Below, in pieces: positions 11,268 through 46,741 of a stretch of DNA of 64,000 bases. The DNA lies in the NCBI RefSeq assembly GCF_050920415.1, contig NZ_CP169309.1; one strand, written 5' to 3'. Under the pieces are notes generated by a model. It searched no databases. It saw only the letters and a list, made by a program, of their open reading frames with translations, and had not been told where the DNA came from. Made by a program: the position numbers and the translations under genes. Numbering within the stretch: the first letter of the stretch is position 1; the number at the start of each line of letters is the position of its first letter. This DNA is from Escherichia coli. Lineage in GTDB: Bacteria; Pseudomonadota; Gammaproteobacteria; Enterobacterales; Enterobacteriaceae.

Positions 11268-12095
11268 TTAGCCGCCGAACTGGTCGGGATCGGGGCCGAG
11301 GCGTTTGCCCTGGTCGAGTTTGGCAATTTCACCTAGCTCGTCTTTGTCGAGACGGAAATCCCAGACATCAAAGTTTTCGGCAATACGTGAAGGTGTGACC
11401 GATTTCGGGATCACCACCAGGCCGTTATCCAGATGCCAGCGGATAACAATCTGCGCCGGGGTTTTGCCGTATTTATCTGCCAGATCGCGAATGACTTTCT
11501 GATCGAAAACGCCTTTCCCTCCTTGCGCTAATGGGCTCCAGGATTCGGTCTGGATTTTGTGTGTCGCGTTCCAGGCGTGAAGCTGGCGTTGCTGCATCAG
11601 CGGGTGGAGTTCAATCTGGTTTATCACCGGCGTCACGCCAGTTTCATCAATCAGGCGTTGCAGGTGGTGGATCTGGAAGTTGCACACGCCGATGCTTTTG
11701 ATTAAGCCCTCTTTTTGCAATTCGATCATGCCCTTCCATGCTTCGACATAATGGTCGATAGCAGGAACGGGCCAGTGCATTAAGTAAAGGTCGACATAAT
11801 CAAGCTGGAGTTTTTTCAGGCTGTCGAGCAGGGCTTCGCGGGGGCGCTTGTGGTCGTCGTTCCACAGTTTAGTGGTGATGAACAGTTCTTCTCTGTTAAC
11901 TGAGGCATTTTTCAGGGCTTTGCCGACACCTTCTTCGTTCTTATAGGCCGCGGCGGTATCAATCGAGCGATAACCCACGTCTAACGCTTTTTGAATGGCA
12001 GTGATTACTTCCTCATTACTTGCTTGCCAGACGCCCAGTCCCAGCTGGGGCATGACATTGCCATCCTGTAGCTTAATAACGGTTGGATTAGCCAT
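11268..12095 (-). CDS. dkgA: 2,5-diketo-D-gluconate reductase A / methylglyoxal reductase (aldo-keto reductase)
   Basis: 275-aa ORF; aldo-keto reductase family; synteny with yqhD and yqhC. Confidence 0.92.
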   Translation of the reverse strand: MANPTVIKLQDGNVMPQLGLGVWQASNEEVITAIQKALDVGYRSIDTAAAYKNEEGVGKALKNASVNREELFITTKLWNDDHKRPREALLDSLKKLQLDYVDLYLMHWPVPAIDHYVEAWKGMIELQKEGLIKSIGVCNFQIHHLQRLIDETGVTPVINQIELHPLMQQRQLHAWNATHKIQTESWSPLAQGGKGVFDQKVIRDLADKYGKTPAQIVIRWHLDNGLVVIPKSVTPSRIAENFDVWDFRLDKDELGEIAKLDQGKRLGPDPDQFGG

Positions 12096-33783: not shown

Positions 33784-34476
33784 CTAGTGATAACCACACG
33801 CGGTCATAAAATCCGTAATCGCTTTTTCTGCATCAACCAGCACCTTTTCCAGTGGCTGATTGGCGTCGATATCAACCAGTTGTGCACCACCAAAGGTTAA
33901 CTGTGGCGTTATGGCAATCTTTCTCGCCAGCGATTCCCGTTTATGGTCGGGTTTACGCGCGCAGGCAACTTCAAGGTCAACATTGAGTTTGATAACCAGA
34001 TCAGGCTTATGGCTCGCCATCCAGTGAAATGCTTTACGTTCCTGGCTTGCCAGCCATGAGACAAACCGGCCGCCTTCAACGTTAGGTGGGAACACCGTAC
34101 CATCGTAAGCGCCAGGAATTTGGTCCTGAGGATAACGATCGGTTAAGACAATCAGCCCGCGACGACGACAGGCGAGCATATGACGAAAGCGTAACAGTCG
34201 GCGGGCGACGAAAGCGGTGATCACCAGGGCCGGAACCGGACCCGGCAATTTTTTTGCCGTTTTCACTTCATTTTTTTCAATAGTCTTGTGCAGAGACTTT
34301 CCCATCAACGGTAATTTTGTCACTGCACGACCGACATTTCCGGCCTGTTTTCCTAAATGAACTCTTTCGGCAGCACCATATTTTTCGACAACGGTAATAA
34401 GATGTTCACACACCGTTGACTTGCCTGAACCATCGCTACCAATAACGGCAATTAATGGAGGTGTTATTGACTGCAT
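33784..34476 (-). CDS. yghT: P-loop kinase-like protein (Walker [14 protein letters not shown] motif; dTMP-kinase-like fold inferred)
   Basis: 230-aa ORF; paralogous to the next two genes. Confidence 0.85.
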
Positions 34477-34649
34477 GAATATATCCTTAAATTTAAATAT
34501 CCATCCAAAATATTTATTTGGTTAATATGTTTTTATGAAAGCGTAATTCAGGTCAATGTCACAATTAACCATTGTCACAATAAGGTTGAACGGATATTCT
34601 GAGCACGGACCACGTAATATTCAATACATTATTTGCTGCCGGGTTTTTC

Positions 34650-35363
34650 GTGAATCAACGTAATATGTCAATAATTAATTCCACGCCAGTGCGTGTTATT
34701 GCCATTGTAGGATGTGATGGTTCAGGTAAATCGACCCTCACGGCAAGCCTGGTAAATGAACTGGCAGCAACAATGCCAACAGAACACATTTATCTCGGGC
34801 AATCGTCCGGGCGAATTGGCGAATGGATTTCACAGCTCCCTGTTATTGGCGCACCTTTTGGGCGTTATCTGCGAAGTAAAGCGGCACATGTGCACGAAAA
34901 GCCCTCCACACCGCCTGGCAATATTACTGCGCTGGTTATCTATCTGCTTTCCTGCTGGCGGGCGTATAAGTTTCGCAAAATGTTGTGTAAAAGCCAGCAA
35001 GGCTATCTGCTCATCACCGACCGCTACCCGCAGGTTGAAGTGCCGGGTTTTCGCTTTGATGGCCCGCAACTGGCAAAAAACACGGGCGGTAACGGCTGGA
35101 TAAAAATGTTAAGACAGCGCGAGCTCAAACTTTACCAATGGATGGCGTCTTATTTGCCCGTATTGTTGATTCGTCTTGGCATTGATGAACAAACCGCGTT
35201 TGCGCGTAAACCTGACCACCAACTGGCGGCGTTACAGGAAAAAATCGCTGTTACGCCGCAACTGACATTCAATGGTGCAAAGATCCTTGAACTGGATGGT
35301 CGGCAACCCGCCGATGAAATTCTGCAAGCGTCACTACGCGCAATTCACGCCGCGCTTTCCTGA
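34650..35363 (+). CDS. yghS: P-loop kinase-like protein
   Basis: 237-aa ORF; GCDGSGKST and ITDRYP motifs. Confidence 0.85.
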   Translation: MNQRNMSIINSTPVRVIAIVGCDGSGKSTLTASLVNELAATMPTEHIYLGQSSGRIGEWISQLPVIGAPFGRYLRSKAAHVHEKPSTPPGNITALVIYLLSCWRAYKFRKMLCKSQQGYLLITDRYPQVEVPGFRFDGPQLAKNTGGNGWIKMLRQRELKLYQWMASYLPVLLIRLGIDEQTAFARKPDHQLAALQEKIAVTPQLTFNGAKILELDGRQPADEILQASLRAIHAALS

Positions 35364-35393
35364 TCACCAAATGGATAGGGGATGATTTAACGA

Positions 35394-36152
35394 ATGGATG
35401 CACTACAAACACAAACTGTTAATAGTACAACCGCGCCGCAGCCCAACTACATTCCGGGGCTGATTGCGGTGGTCGGGTGTGATGGCACCGGTAAATCCAC
35501 ACTGACCACTGACCTGGTGAAATCGCTGCAACAACACTGGCAAACCGAGCGCCGCTATCTGGGGCTGCTCTCCGGCGAAGACGGCGACAAAATCAAACGG
35601 TTGCCGCTCGTTGGCGTCTGGCTGGAACGGCGACTGGCGGCCAAATCCTCGAAAACCCAAAGCATGAAAACCAAATCTCCGGCGCTATGGGCGGCGGTGA
35701 TTATGTACTGCTTCTCGCTGCGAAGAATGGCGAATCTACGCAAGGTTCAGCGACTGGCGCAAAGTGGCGTTCTGGTGGTCAGCGATCGCTTCCCGCAGGC
35801 TGAAATTTCGGGCTTTTATTATGACGGACCGGGGATTGGCATCGAGCGTGCGACCGGGAAAATCAGCATGTTTCTGGCCCAGCGCGAACGGCGTTTATAC
35901 CAAAAAATGGCGCAATACCGTCCTGAATTAATTATTCGTTTGGGGATTGATATTGATACTGCCATCTCCCGCAAGCCTGACCATGACTATGCCGAGCTGC
36001 AGGACAAAATCGGTGTCATGTCGACGATTGGCTATAACGGCACAAAAATTCTTGAGATTGATTCCAGAGCGCCCTACAGCGAAGTGCTGGAACAGGCACA
36101 GAAGGCGGTTTCTCTGGTTGCAATCGTTTCTGACCGCCGAAGTTTAACTTAA
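35394..36152 (+). CDS. yghR: P-loop kinase-like protein
   Basis: 252-aa ORF; GCDGTGKST and VSDRFP motifs. Confidence 0.85.
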   Translation: MDALQTQTVNSTTAPQPNYIPGLIAVVGCDGTGKSTLTTDLVKSLQQHWQTERRYLGLLSGEDGDKIKRLPLVGVWLERRLAAKSSKTQSMKTKSPALWAAVIMYCFSLRRMANLRKVQRLAQSGVLVVSDRFPQAEISGFYYDGPGIGIERATGKISMFLAQRERRLYQKMAQYRPELIIRLGIDIDTAISRKPDHDYAELQDKIGVMSTIGYNGTKILEIDSRAPYSEVLEQAQKAVSLVAIVSDRRSLT

Positions 36153-36197
36153 GGTTGGCGGGATACTTTTTATTATCAACGATAAGGTCAGGCTGAA

Positions 36198-37547
36198 TTG
36201 GCGGGGTTTAACATCAAACATTGGTTTGCAGATGGCGCGTTTCGCACCATTATTCGCAATAGCGCCTGGTTAGGCTCCAGTAATGTCGTGAGCGCTTTGC
36301 TGGGTCTGTTGGCGCTCTCGTGTGCCGGTAAAGGGATGACGCCCGCCATGTTTGGCGTACTGGTGATTGTGCAATCGTACGCCAAGTCGATCAGCGATTT
36401 TATTAAGTTTCAGACATGGCAGCTGGTGGTTCAGTACGGAACGCCAGCCTTGACCAATAATAATCCGCAGCAATTTCGCAATGTCGTCTCATTTTCCTTC
36501 TCGTTGGATATCGTCAGCGGCGCGGTGGCGATTGTCGGCGGCATTGCCTTACTCCCTTTTCTTTCCCATTCATTAGGTCTGGATGACCAAAGCTTTTGGC
36601 TGGCAGCGCTGTATTGCACGCTCATTCCTTCAATGGCTTCCTCCACACCGACCGGCATTCTGCGTGCAGTAGATCGCTTCGATTTGATTGCTGTACAGCA
36701 GGCGACGAAACCTTTTCTGCGCGCAGCGGGGAGCGTCGTAGCCTGGTATTTTGATTTTGGTTTTGCGGGTTTTGTTATTGCCTGGTACGCATCGAATCTG
36801 GTTGGCGGCACCATGTACTGGTGGTTTGCCGCGCGCGAATTACGCCGCAGAAATATCCATAACGCCTTCAAATTGAATCTGTTTGAGTCTGCCCGACACA
36901 TTAAAGGCGCGTGGAGTTTTGTCTGGTCAACCAACATTGCCCACTCCATCTGGTCGGCACGTAACTCGTGCAGCACAGTGTTGGTGGGGATCGTGTTAGG
37001 ACCCGCTGCCGCCGGGTTATTTAAAATCGCCATGACATTCTTCGATGCCGCCGGAACGCCAGCGGGTTTACTGGGCAAAAGTTTTTACCCAGAGGTGATG
37101 CGTTTAGATCCGCGTACCACCAGACCGTGGTTGTTAGGCGTGAAGTCCGGTTTACTGGCGGGCGGAATCGGTATTCTGGTGGCGCTCGCGGTGTTGATCG
37201 TCGGCAAGCCGCTCATTTCGCTGGTGTTTGGCGTTAAGTATCTCGAAGCGTATGACCTGATTCAGGTGATGCTTGGCGCAATTGTGATTTCGATGCTGGG
37301 CTTCCCACAGGAGTCATTGCTATTGATGGCGGGAAAACAGCGCGCTTTTCTCGTGGCGCAAACCATCGCCTCAATCGGCTACATCGTATTGCTGTTCATG
37401 TTCTGTCATCTGTTTGGCGTGCTGGGGGCTGCATTTGCTTACTTCGGTGGGCAATGTCTGGATGTGGTGCTCTCGTTAATTCCAACCTTAAAGGCATTTT
37501 TTCAGCGCCATTCCTTGCTTTATAACGCAGCCGGAGAGAAATCCTGA
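36198..37547 (+). CDS. yghQ: Polytopic inner-membrane protein, MOP/Wzx-like flippase family (putative lipid or polysaccharide flippase)
   Basis: 449-aa hydrophobic ORF; ORF-track start is TTG, so true start uncertain; synteny with yghRST. Confidence 0.75.
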   Translation: MAGFNIKHWFADGAFRTIIRNSAWLGSSNVVSALLGLLALSCAGKGMTPAMFGVLVIVQSYAKSISDFIKFQTWQLVVQYGTPALTNNNPQQFRNVVSFSFSLDIVSGAVAIVGGIALLPFLSHSLGLDDQSFWLAALYCTLIPSMASSTPTGILRAVDRFDLIAVQQATKPFLRAAGSVVAWYFDFGFAGFVIAWYASNLVGGTMYWWFAARELRRRNIHNAFKLNLFESARHIKGAWSFVWSTNIAHSIWSARNSCSTVLVGIVLGPAAAGLFKIAMTFFDAAGTPAGLLGKSFYPEVMRLDPRTTRPWLLGVKSGLLAGGIGILVALAVLIVGKPLISLVFGVKYLEAYDLIQVMLGAIVISMLGFPQESLLLMAGKQRAFLVAQTIASIGYIVLLFMFCHLFGVLGAAFAYFGGQCLDVVLSLIPTLKAFFQRHSLLYNAAGEKS

Positions 37548-38371
37548 TGATGAGAAAATATTTCCCGCTTGAGGCGAGCGAGCGTCTATTTATTGCAGTT
37601 GAAGAAGATGATGTCGTTGATGCGCAGGTCAGTTTACCGCCGACTATCGCAACAGGTTGTACCACCGAAATCATTCATGATAATTACGCGTTATGCCTGC
37701 AATTCTGGCTGAATGGCGTTGATCGTCAGGAATTACTGCGTTTAATCCACAAACAAGCCAAAGGCGAGGGGCTTACGGCTGACGAGCGTAAACAGTTTAA
37801 ATATATGCGGGCGCGTTATAAGCATCTACGTTTTGCCCAACGGTTGTATTTAAAAAAGCATCAGGCCGGATTTTTATTTGGCAAAACGACCGTTTTTCTT
37901 GGACGTTTTCAGGACGGCTTTCGTAACGGTAAGAAAAATATTGTGTCGTTTTACGGCAACCTTTTACGGATTTATTTAAGCTCTCCGGTCTAGTTGTTGG
38001 TGAACTATTCATTACGCCATAGCCAGTTAGAAAGCGTAAGCGGTTTTATTGCCTATCGGCAAAAGCAAATGCACCTCCTGAAAGAGATTATTGCCAAACC
38101 ACGGCTAACTGGCAGGGAATTTCATGATGTACGAAAAATAATCAGCCAGCAGGTTTCTTATTACGACACCCTAAGATCGCTTGATCCTGAAAATAAAGAA
38201 GCGTTACAGATTTCCCGCTTCCTCGCCGCCATTAATGGCCTGATGGGGGATAAACACGACGACATGGTGGCGGATGATATGGAAAACCGCCAGTCGTATG
38301 ATGCACCGATGGCGCTGGATAGCGATATTCGTCAGCGCTTAGAACTGCTGATTTCGCGTTTTCCGCTATAA
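37547..38371 (+). pseudogene. Hypothetical protein reading frame (275 codons) interrupted by a single in-frame TAG at 37991-37993; either a nonsense pseudogene or two adjacent ORFs
   Basis: ORF-track ORFs 37547-37993 and 37994-38371 are in the same frame and contiguous; start ATG overlaps the yghQ stop (TGATG). Confidence 0.4.
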
Positions 38372-38379
38372 CCGGAGCA

Positions 38380-38943
38380 ATGATGTCATCTCGTTTGATT
38401 ATTGCGCTGATTATCATGCTCTTAGCCCCGGGTGTGCAGGCGCACAATTTCGTCACTGGTAAAACGGTTACCCCTGTTTATATCCAGGAAGGCGGCGAGC
38501 TGCTTCTGAATAGCGACGACGAAATTCACTACCAAAAGTGGAACAGCACACAGCTGGCGGGAAAAGTCCGCATTATTCAGTATATCGCCGGGCGTAAGTC
38601 GGCGAAGAAAAAGAACTCACTGTTAATTAAAGCGGTTGAAGCGGCAAACTTTCCGCAGGATCGTTTTCAGCCCACCACCATTGTGAACACCGATGATGCC
38701 ATCTTTGGTACTGGCTATTTTGTCGTTGGCAAAATCGAAAAAAATAAACGCCGCTATCCGTGGGCGCAATTCGTTATTGACGGCAATGGACAGGGACGCG
38801 TTGTCTGGCGGTTGCCGGAGCAGAGTTCAACCATTCTGGTGCTGAATAAAGCCGGGCAAATTCAGTGGGCAAAGGACGGCAGCCTGACGCCGGAAGAGGT
38901 AGATCATGTCATTGCGCTGGCGCAGAAGCTGATCAATGAATAA
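38380..38943 (+). CDS. YtfJ-family periplasmic protein (signal peptide)
   Basis: 187-aa ORF; N-terminal signal MMSSRLIIALIIMLLAPGVQA; resembles E. coli YtfJ as I recall it. Confidence 0.6.
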   Translation: MMSSRLIIALIIMLLAPGVQAHNFVTGKTVTPVYIQEGGELLLNSDDEIHYQKWNSTQLAGKVRIIQYIAGRKSAKKKNSLLIKAVEAANFPQDRFQPTTIVNTDDAIFGTGYFVVGKIEKNKRRYPWAQFVIDGNGQGRVVWRLPEQSSTILVLNKAGQIQWAKDGSLTPEEVDHVIALAQKLINE

Positions 38944-38973: not shown

Positions 38974-40044
38974 ATGAAGCTGGTTGAACACTACATCATG
39001 CGTGGTACGCGCCGTCTGGTGCTGATTATCGTCGGTTTTCTGATCTTTATTTTCGCCAGCTACTCCGCACAGCGTTATCTGACCGAAGCGGCAAATGGGA
39101 CATTAGCTCTTGATGTTGTGCTGGATATTGTTTTCTACAAGGTGCTGATTGCACTGGAGATGTTGTTACCTGTTGGACTGTATGTGTCAGTTGGCGTGAC
39201 GCTAGGGCAGATGTATACCGACTCGGAAATTACCGCTATTTCTGCGGCGGGGGGGAGTCCGGGACGCTTGTACAAAGCCGTTCTTTATCTGGCGATACCG
39301 CTAAGTATTTTTGTCACCCTTCTGTCGATGTATGGTCGTCCGTGGGCTTATGCGCAGATTTATCAACTGGAGCAACAGTCGCAGTCGGAGCTGGATGTTC
39401 GCCAGTTGCGGGCAAAGAAATTTAACACTAACGATAACGGACGAATGATCCTTTCGCAGACGGTTGATCAGGATAATAATCGCCTGACTGACGTGCTGAT
39501 TTATACTTCTACTGCCAATCGAACCCGTATTTTCCGCGCCCGTTCGGTTGATGTAGTTGACCCATCACCCGAGAAACCGACCGTTATGTTGCATAACGGG
39601 ACCGCCTATCTTCTCGATCATCAGGGGCGTGACGACAACGAACAGATCTACCGTAATCTGCAATTGCATCTGAATCCGCTGGATCAAAGCCCTAACGTCA
39701 AACGCAAAGCAAAATCGGTCACGGAGCTGGCGCGCTCCGCCTTTCCTGCCGATCATGCCGAACTGCAATGGCGACAAAGCCGTGGCCTGACAGCATTGTT
39801 GATGGCGCTGCTGGCCATTTCATTAAGTCGGGTAAAACCGCGGCAAGGGCGATTTTCAACGTTATTGCCACTGACGTTGCTGTTTGTTGCCATTTTTTAT
39901 GGCGGCGACGTCTGCCGTACGCTGGTGGCTAACGGCGCGATTCCCCTCATTCCTGGTTTGTGGTTAGTACCCGGACTCATGCTAATGGGCCTGCTGATGC
40001 TGGTCGCACGCGACTTCTCTTTGCTGCAGAAATTTTCCCGATGA
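38974..40044 (+). CDS. LptF-like permease (YjgP/YjgQ family) paralog
   Basis: 356-aa ORF; N-terminal TM then large periplasmic segment then C-terminal TMs, the LptF/LptG architecture. Confidence 0.7.
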   Translation: MKLVEHYIMRGTRRLVLIIVGFLIFIFASYSAQRYLTEAANGTLALDVVLDIVFYKVLIALEMLLPVGLYVSVGVTLGQMYTDSEITAISAAGGSPGRLYKAVLYLAIPLSIFVTLLSMYGRPWAYAQIYQLEQQSQSELDVRQLRAKKFNTNDNGRMILSQTVDQDNNRLTDVLIYTSTANRTRIFRARSVDVVDPSPEKPTVMLHNGTAYLLDHQGRDDNEQIYRNLQLHLNPLDQSPNVKRKAKSVTELARSAFPADHAELQWRQSRGLTALLMALLAISLSRVKPRQGRFSTLLPLTLLFVAIFYGGDVCRTLVANGAIPLIPGLWLVPGLMLMGLLMLVARDFSLLQKFSR

Positions 40045-41120
40045 ATGTTTTCAGTCGCTATTTAATTCGTCATCTCTTTCTCGGTTTTGCCGCCGCCGCA
40101 GGGCTATTGCTGCCGCTCTTTACCACCTTCAACCTGATTAACGAACTGGATGATGTCAGCCCGGGTGGTTATCGCTGGACTCAGGCGGTGCTGGTGGTGC
40201 TGATGACCTTACCGCGCACACTGGTCGAACTTTCGCCGTTTATCGCCTTATTGGGAGGGATTGTCGGCCTGGGGCAGTTATCGAAAAACAGTGAGCTTAC
40301 CGCCATTCGCAGCACGGGGTTTTCTATCTTCCGTATTGCACTGGTGGCGCTGGTTGCCGGGATATTGTGGACTGTTTCATTAGGCACGATAGATGAGTGG
40401 GTGGCGTCGCCATTGCAGCAACAGGCGCTGCAAATCAAATCGACTGCCACTGCGTTGGGGGAGGACGATGACATTACCGGCAATATGCTGTGGGCCAGGC
40501 GTGGTAATGAATTTGTGACGGTGAAATCGCTGAACGAGCAGGGCCAGCCGGTGGGCGTGGAGATATTTCATTACCGCGACGATCTCTCGCTCGAATCCTA
40601 CATTTATGCACGCAGTGCCACCATTGAAGACGACAAAACGTGGATCCTGCATGGTGTGAATCATAAAAAATGGCTGAATGGCAAAGAAACGCTGGAAACA
40701 TCTGATAATCTTGCCTGGCAATCGGCCTTCACCAGTATGAATCTTGAAGAGTTATCGATGCCGGGAAATACTTTTTCTGTCCGTCAACTTAATCATTACA
40801 TCCATTATTTGCAGGAAACCGGGCAACCCAGCAGCGAATACCGCTTTGCACTGTGGGAAAAACTGGGACAACCCATCTTGACCCTTGCGATGATTTTGCT
40901 GGCTGTGCCGTTTACCTTTAGTGCCCCGCGTTCGCCTGGGATGGGTAGCCGTCTCGCTGTAGGCGTCATCGTGGGGTTACTCACCTGGAGCAGCTATCAA
41001 ATCATGGTCAATCTGGGATTGCTATTTGCGTTGAGCGCACCTGTTACCGCGCTCGGTTTACCGATAGCGTTTATGCTGGTGGCGTTGAGCCTGGTGTATT
41101 GGTATGACAGTCAACATTAA
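40041..41120 (+). CDS. LptG-like permease (YjgP/YjgQ family) paralog
   Basis: Start at ATGA overlap with upstream gene (MNVFSRYLIRHL); same architecture; 359 aa. Confidence 0.7.
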   Translation: MNVFSRYLIRHLFLGFAAAAGLLLPLFTTFNLINELDDVSPGGYRWTQAVLVVLMTLPRTLVELSPFIALLGGIVGLGQLSKNSELTAIRSTGFSIFRIALVALVAGILWTVSLGTIDEWVASPLQQQALQIKSTATALGEDDDITGNMLWARRGNEFVTVKSLNEQGQPVGVEIFHYRDDLSLESYIYARSATIEDDKTWILHGVNHKKWLNGKETLETSDNLAWQSAFTSMNLEELSMPGNTFSVRQLNHYIHYLQETGQPSSEYRFALWEKLGQPILTLAMILLAVPFTFSAPRSPGMGSRLAVGVIVGLLTWSSYQIMVNLGLLFALSAPVTALGLPIAFMLVALSLVYWYDSQH

Positions 41121-41154: not shown

Positions 41155-42327
41155 TTACTGCTTCAGAGTAGCAAATGCCTGAATGATGGCATCGATTTGC
41201 TCACGAGTGTGGGCAGCGTTTACGCTACAGCGCAGCAGCGTGATGCCTGCAGGCGCGGCAGGTGGCAGGATAAGATTCACATAAACGCCCAGCGAAATAA
41301 GCTCGCGCCAGATGCGTAAACCTTCCTCTTTCGAACCGATTATTACTGGCACTACCGGGCTAATATGTGAACTTAACTCGTAACCCAGTTTTTGCAGACC
41401 GTCATACAGATGGCTGGCGTTATCCATCAGCTTTTGCCGCAACTCTGGTTGTGAGGCAATGGTTCTTAACGACGAGCGCACGGTCGCAATGCAGGACGGA
41501 GAAGGAGAGGCGGTAAAAATATACGGGCGGCTGCCGTAGCGCAGCACTTCCATCGCTTCCGAACCGACAGCAAAACCGCCAATCGAGGCCAGACTTTTAC
41601 TGAAAGTACCAACGATAATATCCACATCATCTTCAACGCCAACGGCTTCAGCCAGTCCGCGCCCCGTTGCGCCTAACACGCCAAACGAATGCGCTTCATC
41701 GACAATCAAATAACCACCGAGACGACGTTTGATATCAACAATTTCCGCCAGCGGCGCAACGTCACCGAGCATACTGTAGATGCCTTCAACGATGATAATC
41801 GCCTCTTTTGCCCGTTCACCGAGGCGAACCATGCGCCGTTCCAGATCTTTAGCATCGTTATGGCGGAAACGAATAATTTCCGCTCCACCGAGAGAACAGG
41901 CGTCATAAATACTGGCGTGGCTATCGGCATCCAGTAACACCACGGCGTTATGGTCGGCAAGTGCGCTGATGACACCTAAATTAGCGGTATAACCGGTTGA
42001 AAAAACGATAGCGGTAGGGCGATTGAAAAACTCGGCAATCTCTTTCTCTAACGCCAGATGTGGCGCATAGCTGCCATTAGCCATACGAGAACCGGTAGTG
42101 CCGGTGCCTTGTGCCGCTAATGCTGCCTGACCTTCGGTGATGGCATCATGATTGAAAGTTAAACCGAGATAATTATTAGTCCCGGCCAGAATCACTTTTT
42201 TATTGCCGATACGGCCTTCAGTGGCGGAGTACACTTCATCAATACAGGTACCAAACGGCGTTAATCCGTTGTCACTAAATTGCAGTCGCTCGCCAGCAAG
42301 GCGCGCATATTTATCGTATAGCCCCAT
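41155..42327 (-). CDS. PLP-dependent alpha-oxoamine synthase (serine palmitoyltransferase / BioF / Kbl family)
   Basis: 390-aa ORF; conserved VDEAHSFGVLG and PLP-lysine GTFSKSL motifs. Confidence 0.8.
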   Translation of the reverse strand: MGLYDKYARLAGERLQFSDNGLTPFGTCIDEVYSATEGRIGNKKVILAGTNNYLGLTFNHDAITEGQAALAAQGTGTTGSRMANGSYAPHLALEKEIAEFFNRPTAIVFSTGYTANLGVISALADHNAVVLLDADSHASIYDACSLGGAEIIRFRHNDAKDLERRMVRLGERAKEAIIIVEGIYSMLGDVAPLAEIVDIKRRLGGYLIVDEAHSFGVLGATGRGLAEAVGVEDDVDIIVGTFSKSLASIGGFAVGSEAMEVLRYGSRPYIFTASPSPSCIATVRSSLRTIASQPELRQKLMDNASHLYDGLQKLGYELSSHISPVVPVIIGSKEEGLRIWRELISLGVYVNLILPPAAPAGITLLRCSVNAAHTREQIDAIIQAFATLKQ

Positions 42328-42575
42328 TATTTATTCTCCAGCCATGGAAGTAGAGTTTCCATTAATTGCGCAGGGGTTTTGACATCCAGCAGAATATTAA
42401 TAGGAATGGAAATATCGAATCTGTCTTCCAGCATCATTAAGAGATCCATCACTTTGATCGACTCCAGGCCAAGATCGTTGACGAGATCGCTGTCGGGCTT
42501 AATTTCCACACCGTTTTCGACCAAATCCTGTAAACAGGAAAGGATGTAATCCATTACTATTTCACGATTTACCAT
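42327..42575 (-). CDS. Acyl carrier protein (dedicated, not housekeeping acpP)
   Basis: 82-aa acidic ORF with phosphopantetheine-attachment-like motif DLGLESIKVMDL. Confidence 0.75.
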   Translation of the reverse strand: MVNREIVMDYILSCLQDLVENGVEIKPDSDLVNDLGLESIKVMDLLMMLEDRFDISIPINILLDVKTPAQLMETLLPWLENK

Positions 42576-42606: not shown

Positions 42607-43521
42607 TCAAAATAGCCCGCTGCGTAATGCGTGTTCCAGGCTAATCCCGGGAAACCAATTAATATCTTCAGAAATACGGTTATTACTTGCTGACCAGTCG
42701 GCGTGGGTTAATTCACGGATTTTCGAGCGGGTCAGCATAGGTTCTTTACCTGCCAGGCGACTCAACGCGGTACTGATATCCGCAAGGCAGGTGAGTACCG
42801 ACAGAGGAATACCAACCATTCGAACGGAACCGCAACGGGCGTCGGCGGCAAGTTGCTGTACGCGTTGCCAGTCATAGCCGCCGGCGACGCCATCGCATAA
42901 TTCATAGGTTTGCGTTTGTACAGTTTCGGCGCTTAACCACTGCCCCACGGCTTGCGCGAAATCGGTGACGTGCAGGAAAGAGAGCTGTGTATCTGGCGCA
43001 CCAAGTCGTGGCAGCAGGCCGCGCAGCATCCAGCCAAACAGCGGTTTTAACTCTTTATCGCCGGGACCATACACGGCTGTCGGGCGAAAAATGCCCAGCG
43101 TAATTTCGTCAGCCATTGCGGTCAGTCGTTGTTCGGCGACGTGTTTGGAATTTGCGTACCAGGAGAGTTCGGGATGGCGCGCCGCCAGCGAAGAGATAAA
43201 CAGAAAACGTTGGCAAAAGCCGCTCTCTTTTGCCGCTTGCATCAGGCGCAGGCTGCCGTCAACGTTACAGCGGGTAAAAATCTCTTCTTTGTGTCCGCGC
43301 ACTTGCCCGGCGCAATGGACCACCGCGCTGGCTCCGGCAACCAGTTCGCTAAGCGAATGTGTATCTTCCAGCGAACCGCGCACCCAGATGAGATTATCAT
43401 TGACGTGAGCGCGGGCAGTACGCGTCAATGCGCGAACGTGAAAGCCGCGGGCGAGCAGGTTATCGATAATATATTTACCGATAAACCCGGTAGCGCCCGT
43501 CACCGCGACAGTTTGATTCAT
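42607..43521 (-). CDS. NAD(P)-dependent epimerase/dehydratase-family (extended SDR) oxidoreductase; candidate 3-keto reductase
   Basis: 304-aa ORF; N-terminal Rossmann motif VTGATGFIG. Confidence 0.75.
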   Translation of the reverse strand: MNQTVAVTGATGFIGKYIIDNLLARGFHVRALTRTARAHVNDNLIWVRGSLEDTHSLSELVAGASAVVHCAGQVRGHKEEIFTRCNVDGSLRLMQAAKESGFCQRFLFISSLAARHPELSWYANSKHVAEQRLTAMADEITLGIFRPTAVYGPGDKELKPLFGWMLRGLLPRLGAPDTQLSFLHVTDFAQAVGQWLSAETVQTQTYELCDGVAGGYDWQRVQQLAADARCGSVRMVGIPLSVLTCLADISTALSRLAGKEPMLTRSKIRELTHADWSASNNRISEDINWFPGISLEHALRSGLF

Positions 43522-45236
43522 GCCATGGATTCCTGCACATGAAGGCTTGCAGCATAACGTTTTTTCGCTTCCGCACGGGCAGGCTTGCCGGAGGACGTTC
43601 GGGGAATACTGTGGGGCGGCAACAGATCGATAGCCGCTGTTACGCCAAATTCGCTTTGGATCCGTGCTGCCAGTGCGTGGATAAGCTGCCCACGACGTTC
43701 TTCGTCGCTGATCCTACACTGGATCTGCAAAATGATTTTTTCCTGGGCGGTAACAAAAGCAATCGCATCGCCAGAATGAATTTCCGGTTCCTGTTCCGCA
43801 ATATATTCAATATCCTGCGGCCAGATATTACGGCCACGAATAATAATCAGATCTTTAATGCGCCCGGTGACATACAGATAACCATCCAGCAGATAACCGA
43901 GGTCGCCGGTATCTAACCAGCCCGTCGCGGCAATCTCGTCTTGCGAAACCTGGTCGCCAAAGTAACCGCTCATCAGGCTGGGGCCGGAGATGCAAATATG
44001 GCCTACCACACGTTCCGCGACCGGCATACCTGCTTCATTGCGGATTTCAATGCCATGTTCCGGCAACGCTTTACCGCAGTTGACGAAAGTCGATACGGCG
44101 CGTGTTTCAGCACCCGGCGCGACGGCTTTGCCCTGATATTCAAGGATGTCGCGATCCACTTCGTTAACCACAACCCCGGAGGCTTCATCAGAGAAGCTGA
44201 CAGCCAGCGCATTTTCTGCCAGTCCGTAGCACGGCATGAAAGTTTTATCGTCAAAGTTAACCTGACGGAAACATTCAGCAAATTGGTGGAGTTGTTCTGC
44301 GGAGATGGGTTCTGCGCCAATACCAGCGACGCGCCAGCACGAGAGATCCAGTTCAGCGAGATCTTTTTCATTCACGCGGCGCTGACACAATTCATAGCCA
44401 AACGGCGGCGCGACGGAAACTGTGCCACGATTTTTACTGATCAATTTAAGCCATTGCAGCGGACGCATGGCAAAATCCTGAGTGCGCAAATAATCTACTG
44501 AGAGCTGCGTGGCGACGGGGGTCAGGAGAAAGCCGACCAGTCCCATATCATGGTAGAAAGGCAGCCAGGAGACGCAGCGGTCGCCAGGGCGTAATTTAAT
44601 GCCATCGTGGCTTATAGCACGTAGATTAGCCATCACTTCGCGATGGGTGATAATGACGCCACGGGGAAAACGGGTGCTGCCGGAGGTGTACTGGAGGTAG
44701 GCGATATCGTTCGGAACTGGACGCTGGAGTACAACATCGGCTTCCGGTAATGCCTTAAACCAGGCGTGGCTTAAAACATGTAATTCGGGGTTGTTATGCG
44801 TAGCAGCATTGACCAGTGGCAACCACTCATCACCAGTGATAATGGCTGCGGGCTGGCAACTAGCCAGTAAACCTTGCAGTTTAGCGCTCCAGGAATCCCG
44901 CTGACCGACGCCCATTGGAATCGCTAACGGGACGGCGACTAAGCCGGCATACTGGCAGGCAAAAAAAGCCTCTACAAACCCGCTACTCGTTTCGGCAATC
45001 AGCGCCACGCGATCGCCTTTTTTCAGATTTAGTGATAACAACCGCTTCGCACCAGCTTCGGCACACGCTTTTAACGTCTGATATTCCAGTTGATCTTCAA
45101 GTTGGCAACGTCTGTCATAAAAATTCATTCCGGCGCTACTCAGAGCGGCGTAGTCCAAAGCATCAACCAGCGTTGGAAAATCGGCATAGCGCATAGGTAG
45201 GGAATGCGTAAAGATGTTATTAGACATATACACCAC
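43518..45236 (-). CDS. Fatty acyl-AMP ligase / acyl-ACP synthetase (AMP-binding superfamily)
   Basis: 572-aa ORF; AMP-binding signature YTSGSTRFPRGV; overlaps downstream reductase gene by 4 nt. Confidence 0.8.
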   Translation of the reverse strand: MVYMSNNIFTHSLPMRYADFPTLVDALDYAALSSAGMNFYDRRCQLEDQLEYQTLKACAEAGAKRLLSLNLKKGDRVALIAETSSGFVEAFFACQYAGLVAVPLAIPMGVGQRDSWSAKLQGLLASCQPAAIITGDEWLPLVNAATHNNPELHVLSHAWFKALPEADVVLQRPVPNDIAYLQYTSGSTRFPRGVIITHREVMANLRAISHDGIKLRPGDRCVSWLPFYHDMGLVGFLLTPVATQLSVDYLRTQDFAMRPLQWLKLISKNRGTVSVAPPFGYELCQRRVNEKDLAELDLSCWRVAGIGAEPISAEQLHQFAECFRQVNFDDKTFMPCYGLAENALAVSFSDEASGVVVNEVDRDILEYQGKAVAPGAETRAVSTFVNCGKALPEHGIEIRNEAGMPVAERVVGHICISGPSLMSGYFGDQVSQDEIAATGWLDTGDLGYLLDGYLYVTGRIKDLIIIRGRNIWPQDIEYIAEQEPEIHSGDAIAFVTAQEKIILQIQCRISDEERRGQLIHALAARIQSEFGVTAAIDLLPPHSIPRTSSGKPARAEAKKRYAASLHVQESMA

Positions 45237-45598
45237 GAAAAAAATTGGATATCAGAAATAAAATGACAATAATGCGGTGGATTATATAGGCATAAAAGAT
45301 AAATGAGATAGTATTTTCATCGGTGCGATATTGAACATTGATTTAAATAATAGGTTTGGCTTTGTTGTTTTTATTGTGAATTATATTTAATTTATGAATA
45401 TATTAAGAAGAAGCCTTGTTTGGTTGCCTTAAATCGACAAAAGGCATTGAGGCGCTTCTGTGTAGTCTCTGACCTTATCTTAATTATTAATAAATACTAT
45501 TTATTCTTTGTTTGTATTCTTTGGGTTGATTATTAAGATGCCGTTCGTTGCTGTTGCAATCTGTTTGTCACCGTTAATTATTTGTTATCCACAGAGAT
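45237..45598. promoter_or_regulatory. AT-rich divergent promoter region between the acyl-AMP ligase operon and yghO
   Basis: 362 bp, visibly AT-rich with multiple A/T tracts; flanked by divergently oriented start codons. Confidence 0.45.
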
Positions 45599-46741
45599 AT
45601 GGAATGCGATCTGCTGATGATTAAAATTGAAAAAGTAATTAATAAAAATGACCTTAAGGCATTTATCGCTTTTCCGTCATCACTTTATCCCGATGATCCA
45701 AACTGGATACCCCCTTTGTTCATTGAACGCAGCGAGCATTTGTCGGCGAAGAATCCGGGGACGGACCATATTATCTGGCAGGCGTGGGTAGCAAAAAAAG
45801 CGGGGCAGATAGTCGGGCGGATTACCGCGCAAATCGATACCTTGCACCGCGAGCGTTACGGTGACGATACCGGTCATTTCGGCATGATTGACGCCATTGA
45901 TGATCCGCAGGTTTTTGCCGCGTTGTTTGGCGCAGCGGAAGCGTGGTTGAAGTCACAAGGTGCAAGTAAGATCAGCGGGCCTTTCAGCCTGAATATCAAT
46001 CAGGAAAGCGGATTACTGATTGAAGGTTTCGACACTCCGCCCTGTGCGATGATGCCGCACGGTAAACCGTGGTATGCCGCGCATATTGAACAATTGGGTT
46101 ATCACAAAGGTATTGATTTACTGGCGTGGTGGATGCAACGAACCGATCTCACTTTCTCTCCGGCGCTAAAAAAACTGATGGATCAGGTGCGCAAAAAGGT
46201 GACCATTCGCTGCATCAAGCGCCAGCGGTTTGCCGAAGAGATGCTGATCCTGCGTGAGATTTTCAACTCTGGCTGGCAGCACAACTGGGGATTTGTGCCG
46301 TTTACCGAACATGAATTCGCTACCATGGGCGATCAACTAAAGTATCTGGTACCGGACGATATGATCTACGTCGCCGAGATTGATTCTGCTCCCTGCGCGT
46401 TTATAGTCGGCTTGCCGAACATCAACGAGGCGATTGCCGATCTGAACGGAGCGCTCTTTCCCTTCGGCTGGGCAAAATTGCTGTGGCGCTTAAAAGTCAG
46501 CGGTGTGCGAACTGCGCGAGTGCCGCTGATGGGCGTGCGTGACGAGTATCAGTTCAGCCGCATCGGCCCGGTGATTGCGCTGTTATTGATTGAAGCCTTA
46601 CGCGATCCGTTTGCTCGCCGGAAGATCGATGCGCTGGAAATGTCATGGATCCTCGAAACCAATACAGGCATGAATAACATGCTGGAACGCATTGGAGCGG
46701 AGCCGTACAAGCGTTACCGATTGTATGAAAAGCAGATTTGA
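45599..46741 (+). CDS. yghO: YghO, intact; putative GNAT-like acyltransferase (family assignment tentative)
   Basis: 380-aa uninterrupted ORF; synteny next to glcC; K-12 yghO is an annotated pseudogene as I recall. Confidence 0.7.
   Translation: MECDLLMIKIEKVINKNDLKAFIAFPSSLYPDDPNWIPPLFIERSEHLSAKNPGTDHIIWQAWVAKKAGQIVGRITAQIDTLHRERYGDDTGHFGMIDAIDDPQVFAALFGAAEAWLKSQGASKISGPFSLNINQESGLLIEGFDTPPCAMMPHGKPWYAAHIEQLGYHKGIDLLAWWMQRTDLTFSPALKKLMDQVRKKVTIRCIKRQRFAEEMLILREIFNSGWQHNWGFVPFTEHEFATMGDQLKYLVPDDMIYVAEIDSAPCAFIVGLPNINEAIADLNGALFPFGWAKLLWRLKVSGVRTARVPLMGVRDEYQFSRIGPVIALLLIEALRDPFARRKIDALEMSWILETNTGMNNMLERIGAEPYKRYRLYEKQI

Follow-up and report, generated by a model that had tools for sequence, protein, structure and literature searches.

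Intact yghO in an Escherichia coli sphingolipid-type locus: a predicted bacterial ceramide synthase with a tandem GNAT fold

The yghO locus and its state in E. coli

The window is a 64,000-nucleotide stretch of DNA from Escherichia coli (NCBI RefSeq assembly GCF_050920415.1, contig NZ_CP169309.1). It contains an intact yghO gene and, at most 7 kb away from it, spt, acpR, aasR, a cerR homologue and lptF2/G2. The features of this region are the following.

38974..41120, plus strand: LptF and LptG paralogs (lptF2 38974-40044, lptG2 40041-41120), with TIGR04407 and TIGR04408 above cut-off
41155..42327, minus strand: serine palmitoyltransferase gene (spt), from the NCBIfam equivalog NF047599 at 599.6 bits (cut-off 500)
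42327..42575, minus strand: specialized acyl carrier protein (AcpR), 82 aa, with matches to ACP HMMs
42607..43521, minus strand: NAD-dependent epimerase/dehydratase-family reductase (CerR homologue), from NCBIfam SDR matches and RefSeq annotation
43518..45227, minus strand: aasR-type fatty acyl-AMP ligase / acyl-ACP synthetase, from NCBIfam NF006624 at 871 bits (cut-off 600)
45228..45598, no strand: AT-rich divergent intergenic region between the ligase operon and yghO, 371 bp, GC 0.29-0.34; the ligase start at 45227 is that of the RefSeq annotation
45599..46741, plus strand: yghO as annotated, 380 aa plus stop, from the ORF list, the translation and RefSeq ('protein YghO'); the predicted product is a bacterial ceramide synthase (bCerS/Aca orthologue)
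45617..45619, plus strand: conserved start codon, which is Met7 in the annotated ORF; the product from it has 374 aa
45638..45639, no strand: position of the right-hand IS5 junction in K-12, from alignment with a K-12-like locus and annotations

The reading frame of yghO begins with ATG and is unbroken. An earlier note on this DNA had described an uninterrupted 380-aa YghO that is divergent from the acyl-AMP ligase operon across an AT-rich region. Both observations are correct: the ligase gene lies on the minus strand, and GC content falls to 0.29-0.34 across 45100-45700, compared with about 0.52 in the flanks. A sigma-70 promoter scan of 45228-45598 gave no more matches than shuffled sequence did, and no promoter is claimed. 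On its glcC side, yghO is flanked by glcC and glcDEFGB. The segment 45200-46800 is 100% identical to strain MFDS1022581, in which RefSeq likewise names the gene yghO and its product 'protein YghO'.

The functional start of yghO is probably at 45617, because homologues from other genera are almost all 374 aa long, and because in other Enterobacterales the equivalent ATG follows a TAAGG Shine-Dalgarno sequence 6-7 nt upstream, often with no in-frame start further upstream. Strand beta-1 of the structural model described below starts at residue 2 of this 374-aa form. The six additional residues of the annotated form have no effect on the enzyme assignment.

K-12 carries a damaged version of the locus. 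In MG1655 and in one K-12 derivative, annotations and alignment place an IS5 element directly against yghO. The end of the element (…CACCTTCC) is joined to native sequence at window position 45638/45639. IS5 sequence takes the place of the promoter and of the first 13 codons in the 380-aa form, or the first 7 in the 374-aa form. The seven residues missing from the protein make up strand beta-1 in the model. The IS5-associated deletion, about 8.4 kb long, runs from within the 3' part of yghQ (about 37263) to 45638/45639 and takes out lptF2, lptG2, spt and the ACP, reductase and ligase genes. The earlier note had given K-12 yghO as an annotated pseudogene beside an IS5. The element and the damage are there; the pseudogene label is absent from the records examined. 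NC_000913.3 gives yghO (b2981) as a 390-aa CDS that starts inside IS5 and is named 'putative DNA-binding transcriptional regulator YghO', and the PGAP version is a 378-aa 'protein YghO'.

Most E. coli carry yghO intact, and the window is not special in this respect. The gene is matched in 4551 of 5426 complete E. coli genomes. The 6.3-kb block from lptF2 to the ligase is covered to at least 80% in 4058 of the same 5426 genomes (~75%).

The allele in the window differs from most others. Segment 45200-46800 has at least 99% identity to only 2 of the 4551 matching genomes and about 95-96% to most, which suggests a divergent lineage or a recombinant allele. In a human isolate (NZ_CP180609.1), an IS1-family transposase splits the match to this segment, which covers yghO and its upstream spacer. 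At least two insertion-sequence events have disrupted the locus, IS1 in that strain and IS5 in K-12.

A tandem GNAT fold

The earlier note had raised the possibility of a GNAT fold and proposed fold prediction as a check. An AlphaFold2 model of YghO, built on the family alignment, bears this out in tandem form: two GNAT-like alpha/beta domains linked by a helix, with a pLDDT of 96.8 and a pTM of 0.93. In a Foldseek search of the PDB, the leading matches are tandem GNAT proteins, namely ORF14 (2wpw, 4e-16), GlmA (5kf1), MAB_4324 (7q3a), MshD, VipF, Eis and FemX. Such matches extend over about 290 aligned residues. All structural neighbours of the model are acyltransferases. The protein can be divided as follows.

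45617..46141, plus strand: N-terminal GNAT-like domain (residues 1-175 of the 374-aa form), from AlphaFold2 secondary structure and the tandem-GNAT matches
46199..46738, plus strand: C-terminal GNAT domain (residues 195-374), from PDB profile matches at profile positions 304-379 and conserved residues
46511..46597, plus strand: beta4'-alpha3' segment ARVPLMGVRDEYQFSRIGPVIALLLIEAL, putative counterpart of the CoA pyrophosphate-binding loop (motif A) of GNAT enzymes, from HMM alignment to 3tt2 and 2ge3 and secondary structure

The C-terminal domain is the probable acyl-donor-binding and catalytic domain. In the family alignment its conserved residues are R301, G306, E341, W344, L346 and N349, and an NWGF motif is conserved at 223-226. 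Judged from this conservation, these residues would suit donor binding and catalysis. Residues 304-379 of the family profile align to motif A (beta4-alpha3) and beta5 of 3tt2 (E = 0.0017) and also of 2ge3. Motif A is loosely kept, its loop reading R-D-E-Y-Q-F-S-R-I-G-P in YghO against the classical Q/R-x-x-G-x-G/A.

Standard searches with the E. coli protein recover little of this. The protein matches no model in Pfam-A or NCBIfam, and a single-sequence search of the PDB returns noise only. The family profile, searched against the PDB, matches GNAT enzymes almost exclusively, mostly weakly. Among 124 family members, Pfam Acetyltransf_1 (PF00583) is matched by 15 at E<=1e-3 and by 51 at E<=0.1, and the E. 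coli protein itself does not match it. Neither a transmembrane segment nor a signal peptide was detected in YghO.

The family itself is large. An exhaustive search yields 6422 representative clusters at E<=1e-3 and 1085 at E<=1e-30, with matches that are mostly full length at 33-50% identity. Pfam-A and NCBIfam contain no model for the bCerS/YghO family, and the names that it carries in public records disagree: N-acetyltransferase, DNA-binding transcriptional regulator, dATP pyrophosphohydrolase and VagC are all in use. One public homologue record is titled 'Hypothetical protein associated with Serine palmitoyltransferase'.

One of these names implies a different function. The MG1655 record and many UniProt entries label YghO a DNA-binding transcriptional regulator, which here would control the divergent operon, and several AFDB entries carry 'DNA-binding protein'. 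A divergent layout is typical of local regulators, and yghO has that layout. The fold argues against this reading. A DNA-binding regulator fold, which the earlier note had named as the finding that would count against an acyltransferase, was looked for in Pfam, NCBIfam, a PDB profile search and the fold search, and was not found. The sequence and profile searches, made with the E. coli protein and the 124-sequence alignment, contain no HTH or other DNA-binding family. The two GNAT domains, modelled with high confidence, account for all 374 residues. A regulatory role has next to no chance of being correct and is rejected on the fold; the label in the K-12 record and the UniProt entries is unsupported and effectively refuted.

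The solved tandem GNATs differ from YghO in several respects. MAB_4324 (7q3a), GlmA (5kf1), ORF14 (2wpw), MshD (1ozp) and Eis transfer acetyl groups to sugars, amino acids and aminoglycosides. YghO is ~50 residues longer and has an additional helical insertion (residues 269-295). N-myristoyltransferase and the FemX-type double GNATs, whose substrates are protein N-termini and peptidoglycan precursors, are structurally much more distant, and their sequence homology to YghO is undetectable. The solved structures closest to YghO, at 12-17% identity, belong to acetyltransferases that act on sugars and small amines, so the structure of YghO gives no pointer to a lipid substrate.

Linkage and fusion to lipid genes across species

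The neighbourhood of yghO homologues was scanned in one genome per species, with a 15-sequence alignment as query. Eighty loci with 44-95% identity were kept. Their hosts include Enterobacterales, Pseudomonas, Nitrosomonas, Nitrospira, Gemmatimonadota, Desulfobacterota and Roseovarius, among others. Within 10 kb of the homologue, Spt is found at 43 of the 80 loci, the ligase at 47 and LptF2/G2 paralogs at 50. Where at least 8 kb is present on both sides, 49 of 52 loci carry at least one of the three. The divergent-ligase layout of E. coli recurs at 26 of these 52.

The three exceptions are Luteibacter, Dyella and a second copy in Shimwellia pseudoproteus. In the latter species, the first copy lies in an spt locus. 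The second (74% identity; locus L017, 10001-11122) has no sphingolipid genes within 10 kb.

An example of conserved layout with different surroundings is Serratia liquefaciens. Its YghO homologue (81% identity) is also divergent from a ligase-reductase-ACP-Spt cluster, and its far flank is unrelated to that of E. coli, with a DgkA-like kinase and a MatE transporter in place of glcC. The kinase gene, of the prokaryotic DgkA diacylglycerol kinase type, directly follows the YghO homologue (11354-11716 in loci L003 and L004). It is possible that this kinase is a lipid kinase of the pathway in that genus. In Nitrosomonas, the YghO homologue adjoins lptF2-lptG2 and spt is found elsewhere.

Natural fusions also tie the YghO domain to lipid chemistry. 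In one protein (P0198), the domain is fused to an acyl-AMP ligase, beside a glycosyltransferase of the MGDG-synthase type. In another (P0132), it is fused to a fatty-acid hydroxylase, beside genes for an ACP and a ketoacyl synthase. A third protein (P0121) is a tandem duplicate. The two fusion loci (L086, 8001-10823; L087, 8001-9893) have no spt within 8 kb. Since these two fusion proteins are not beside spt, they may make other N-acyl lipids, and parts of the wider family may acylate other amines.

These data bear on the simplest alternative, that YghO is a generic N-acetyltransferase of a sugar, a small amine or protein lysines, and lies next to a lipid operon by coincidence. Public names are mostly 'N-acetyltransferase', and the enzymes with the closest solved folds have glucosamine, mycothiol precursors and aminoglycosides as acetyl acceptors. 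YghO also appears among the candidates in a screen for E. coli lysine acetyltransferases (PMC6199490). The K-12 allele in that screen is N-terminally altered. YghO is reportedly not among the enzymes that the screen went on to identify. The linkage to Spt, ligase and LptF2/G2, spread over several phyla, the fusions to lipid enzymes and the requirement for the Caulobacter orthologue in ceramide synthesis all argue against coincidence. A generic acetyltransferase is therefore rejected as very improbable, with the conserved linkage against it.

Predicted role in sphingolipid synthesis

The earlier note had put YghO forward as the candidate N-acyltransferase of the lipid locus. The fold, the absence of a regulator domain and the conserved spt linkage all favour this proposal, and the interpretation is well supported. 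The assignment itself is not novel and has been in print since 2022 (PMC9386255). What is added here is a high-confidence tandem-GNAT model, removal of the 'DNA-binding regulator' label of MG1655, a quantified linkage across species, a count of the prevalence of the locus in E. coli, the start at 45617 and the exact breakpoint in K-12.

The published work, by Padilla-Gómez et al. in 2022, studied the E. coli BL21(DE3) version of the locus (PMC9386255). Its Figure 9 and Table S2 pair CC_1154 with yghO/ECD_02850 as aca orthologues, at 44% identity, 61% similarity and a coverage of 98% (E = 1e-107). The same study showed that ECD_02853 is a phosphopantetheinylated acyl carrier protein (AcpR) carrying 4'-phosphopantetheine, and that ECD_02851 is its cognate acyl-ACP synthetase (AasR). 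Spt of E. coli B was assayed and preferred acyl-AcpR, and ECD_02852 was proposed as keto-sphinganine reductase (PMC9386255). The BL21(DE3) YghO protein is 98% identical (374/380) to that of the window.

In Caulobacter, CC_1154/CCNA_01212 is bCerS, which is required for ceramide synthesis. It is a cytoplasmic, peripherally membrane-associated acyltransferase that acts before the periplasmic reductase CerR. Its gene, cerS, adjoins lptG2 and lptF2 (CC_1155 and CC_1156). YghO resembles bCerS/Aca/CerS in length, in being of GNAT type, in having no transmembrane segment and in its place in a sphingolipid locus, next to LptF/G paralogs and near spt, acpR, cerR and aasR. The gene order differs, since yghO is divergent from aasR whereas Caulobacter cerS lies beside lptG2, as in Nitrosomonas. 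In a figure of a 2026 preprint, the sphingolipid operons of E. coli UTI89 and of Caulobacter stand side by side.

YghO is most likely the E. coli orthologue of bCerS/Aca/CerS, predicted to be a soluble cytoplasmic double GNAT of ~374 aa, with a probability of roughly 0.8. Orthology to CC_1154 rests on the published BLAST table, from which the 44% figure is taken (PMC9386255), together with gene context. It comes from the literature, as do the genetic and biochemical validation of the Caulobacter enzyme and the characterization of Spt, AcpR and AasR in E. coli B. The earlier note had linked YghO to the bacterial ceramide synthase by analogy. The link holds, and the published relation is one of homology and orthology instead. 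Literature searches found no enzymatic or genetic test of E. coli YghO itself.

For E. coli, the substrate, the donor and the order of the steps are inferred. In the proposed pathway, AasR would activate a fatty acid and load it onto the dedicated carrier AcpR. Spt would then condense the AcpR-borne acyl group with serine to give 3-ketosphinganine. Next, with an acyl thioester as donor, YghO would place a second acyl chain on the C2 amino group, forming oxidized dihydroceramide, which the SDR (CerR homologue) would reduce to dihydroceramide. After addition of a head group, the YghQ flippase and the LptF2/G2 paralogs would export the lipid.

The donor of the second acyl chain would most likely be acyl-CoA, held by the C-terminal GNAT domain. 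Stankeviciute and co-workers are said to have described acyl-CoA in 2022 as the donor of the Caulobacter enzyme. The fusion of the YghO domain to a ligase suggests that the acyl group could be taken from acyl-AcpR instead.

The predicted reaction, N-acylation of a sphingoid base from acyl-CoA, would be shared with the eukaryotic ceramide synthases (Lag1/CerS). These are multi-pass membrane proteins with a TLC domain, whereas YghO is a soluble GNAT, unrelated in fold and topology. For bCerS and the eukaryotic enzymes, 'convergent evolution' has already been stated in a title that the 2026 preprint cites.

The same enzyme could also act in a eukaryote-like order. In that case, the SDR would first reduce 3-ketosphinganine to sphinganine, and YghO would then N-acylate sphinganine to dihydroceramide. 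The Geiger group put this order forward for CC_1154 and, in explicit terms, for ECD_02850 (PMC9386255). The E. coli SDR opens directly with a Rossmann motif (MNQTVAVTGATGFIGKY) and lacks an obvious signal peptide, which makes a cytoplasmic location of the reductase plausible. In Caulobacter, however, deletion of cerR leads to accumulation of oxidized ceramide, and CerR shows the behaviour of a periplasmic protein, in contrast to the cytoplasmic bCerS, which favours acylation first. The computed evidence fits both orders alike. Taken together, reduction before acylation is rather unlikely.

The locus may be silent in E. coli, since to our knowledge this species is not known to make sphingolipids and none has been reported from wild type. 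The enzyme assignment would then be right and the locus cryptic, either silenced or decaying, with YghO idle under normal conditions. AT-rich control regions are typical of silenced loci; the control region here is AT-rich and may point to silencing. The insertions of IS5 in K-12 and of IS1 in another strain are consistent with decay. Likewise, empty-vector BL21(DE3), which carries the locus, shows no such lipids (PMC9386255).

Several observations argue against a cryptic locus. About 75% of complete genomes keep the block, and none of its genes is flagged as a pseudogene in the records sampled. The YghO protein cluster, a full-length grouping within 90% identity, has about 4,000 member sequences. 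When synthesis of 3-oxo-sphinganine is supplied to BL21(DE3) by AcpR, AasR and Spt, species that migrate like sphinganine and ceramide are seen by TLC, and the strain thus appears to convert the supplied 3-oxo-sphinganine onward (PMC9386255). A cryptic locus is a serious possibility, if the lesser one.

If the locus is active, the best-studied bacterium makes ceramide-type lipids in most of its wild strains, and K-12 cannot make them. Such activity would have a bearing on outer-membrane biology, host interaction and polymyxin susceptibility.

A further proposal, which is doubtful at present, extends the N-acyltransferase assignment. Most natural E. coli (~three quarters of complete genomes) would make and export an undetected sphingolipid, with YghO performing the N-acylation and the yghR/S/T paralogs, in place of Cpg, building the head group. 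The product would be a new class of phosphosphingolipid, lost by K-12 through the IS5 deletion.

The genes yghT, yghS and yghR lie at the edge of the locus. Together with the MOP flippase gene yghQ they occupy 33784-37547, and they are three paralogous genes for dTMP-kinase-like P-loop proteins. They look different from the cpg genes of Caulobacter. A relationship between YghR/S/T and the Caulobacter ceramide kinase CpgB was considered and ruled out, CpgB being DAGK-like. Because CpgB is of this type and YghR/S/T are dTMP-kinase-like P-loop proteins, the head-group chemistry of E. coli probably differs from that of Caulobacter.

Export can be considered in a similar way. According to the 2026 preprint, the LptF2/G2 paralogs of Caulobacter are needed for sphingolipid transport. 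By analogy, the LptF2/G2 pair of the window is a candidate sphingolipid exporter. Between yghQ and lptF2, at 37547-38943, are genes for a 274-aa hypothetical protein and a secreted YtfJ-family protein. Since no LptC2 equivalent was recognized at the locus, either of these two could be a periplasmic partner of the exporter.
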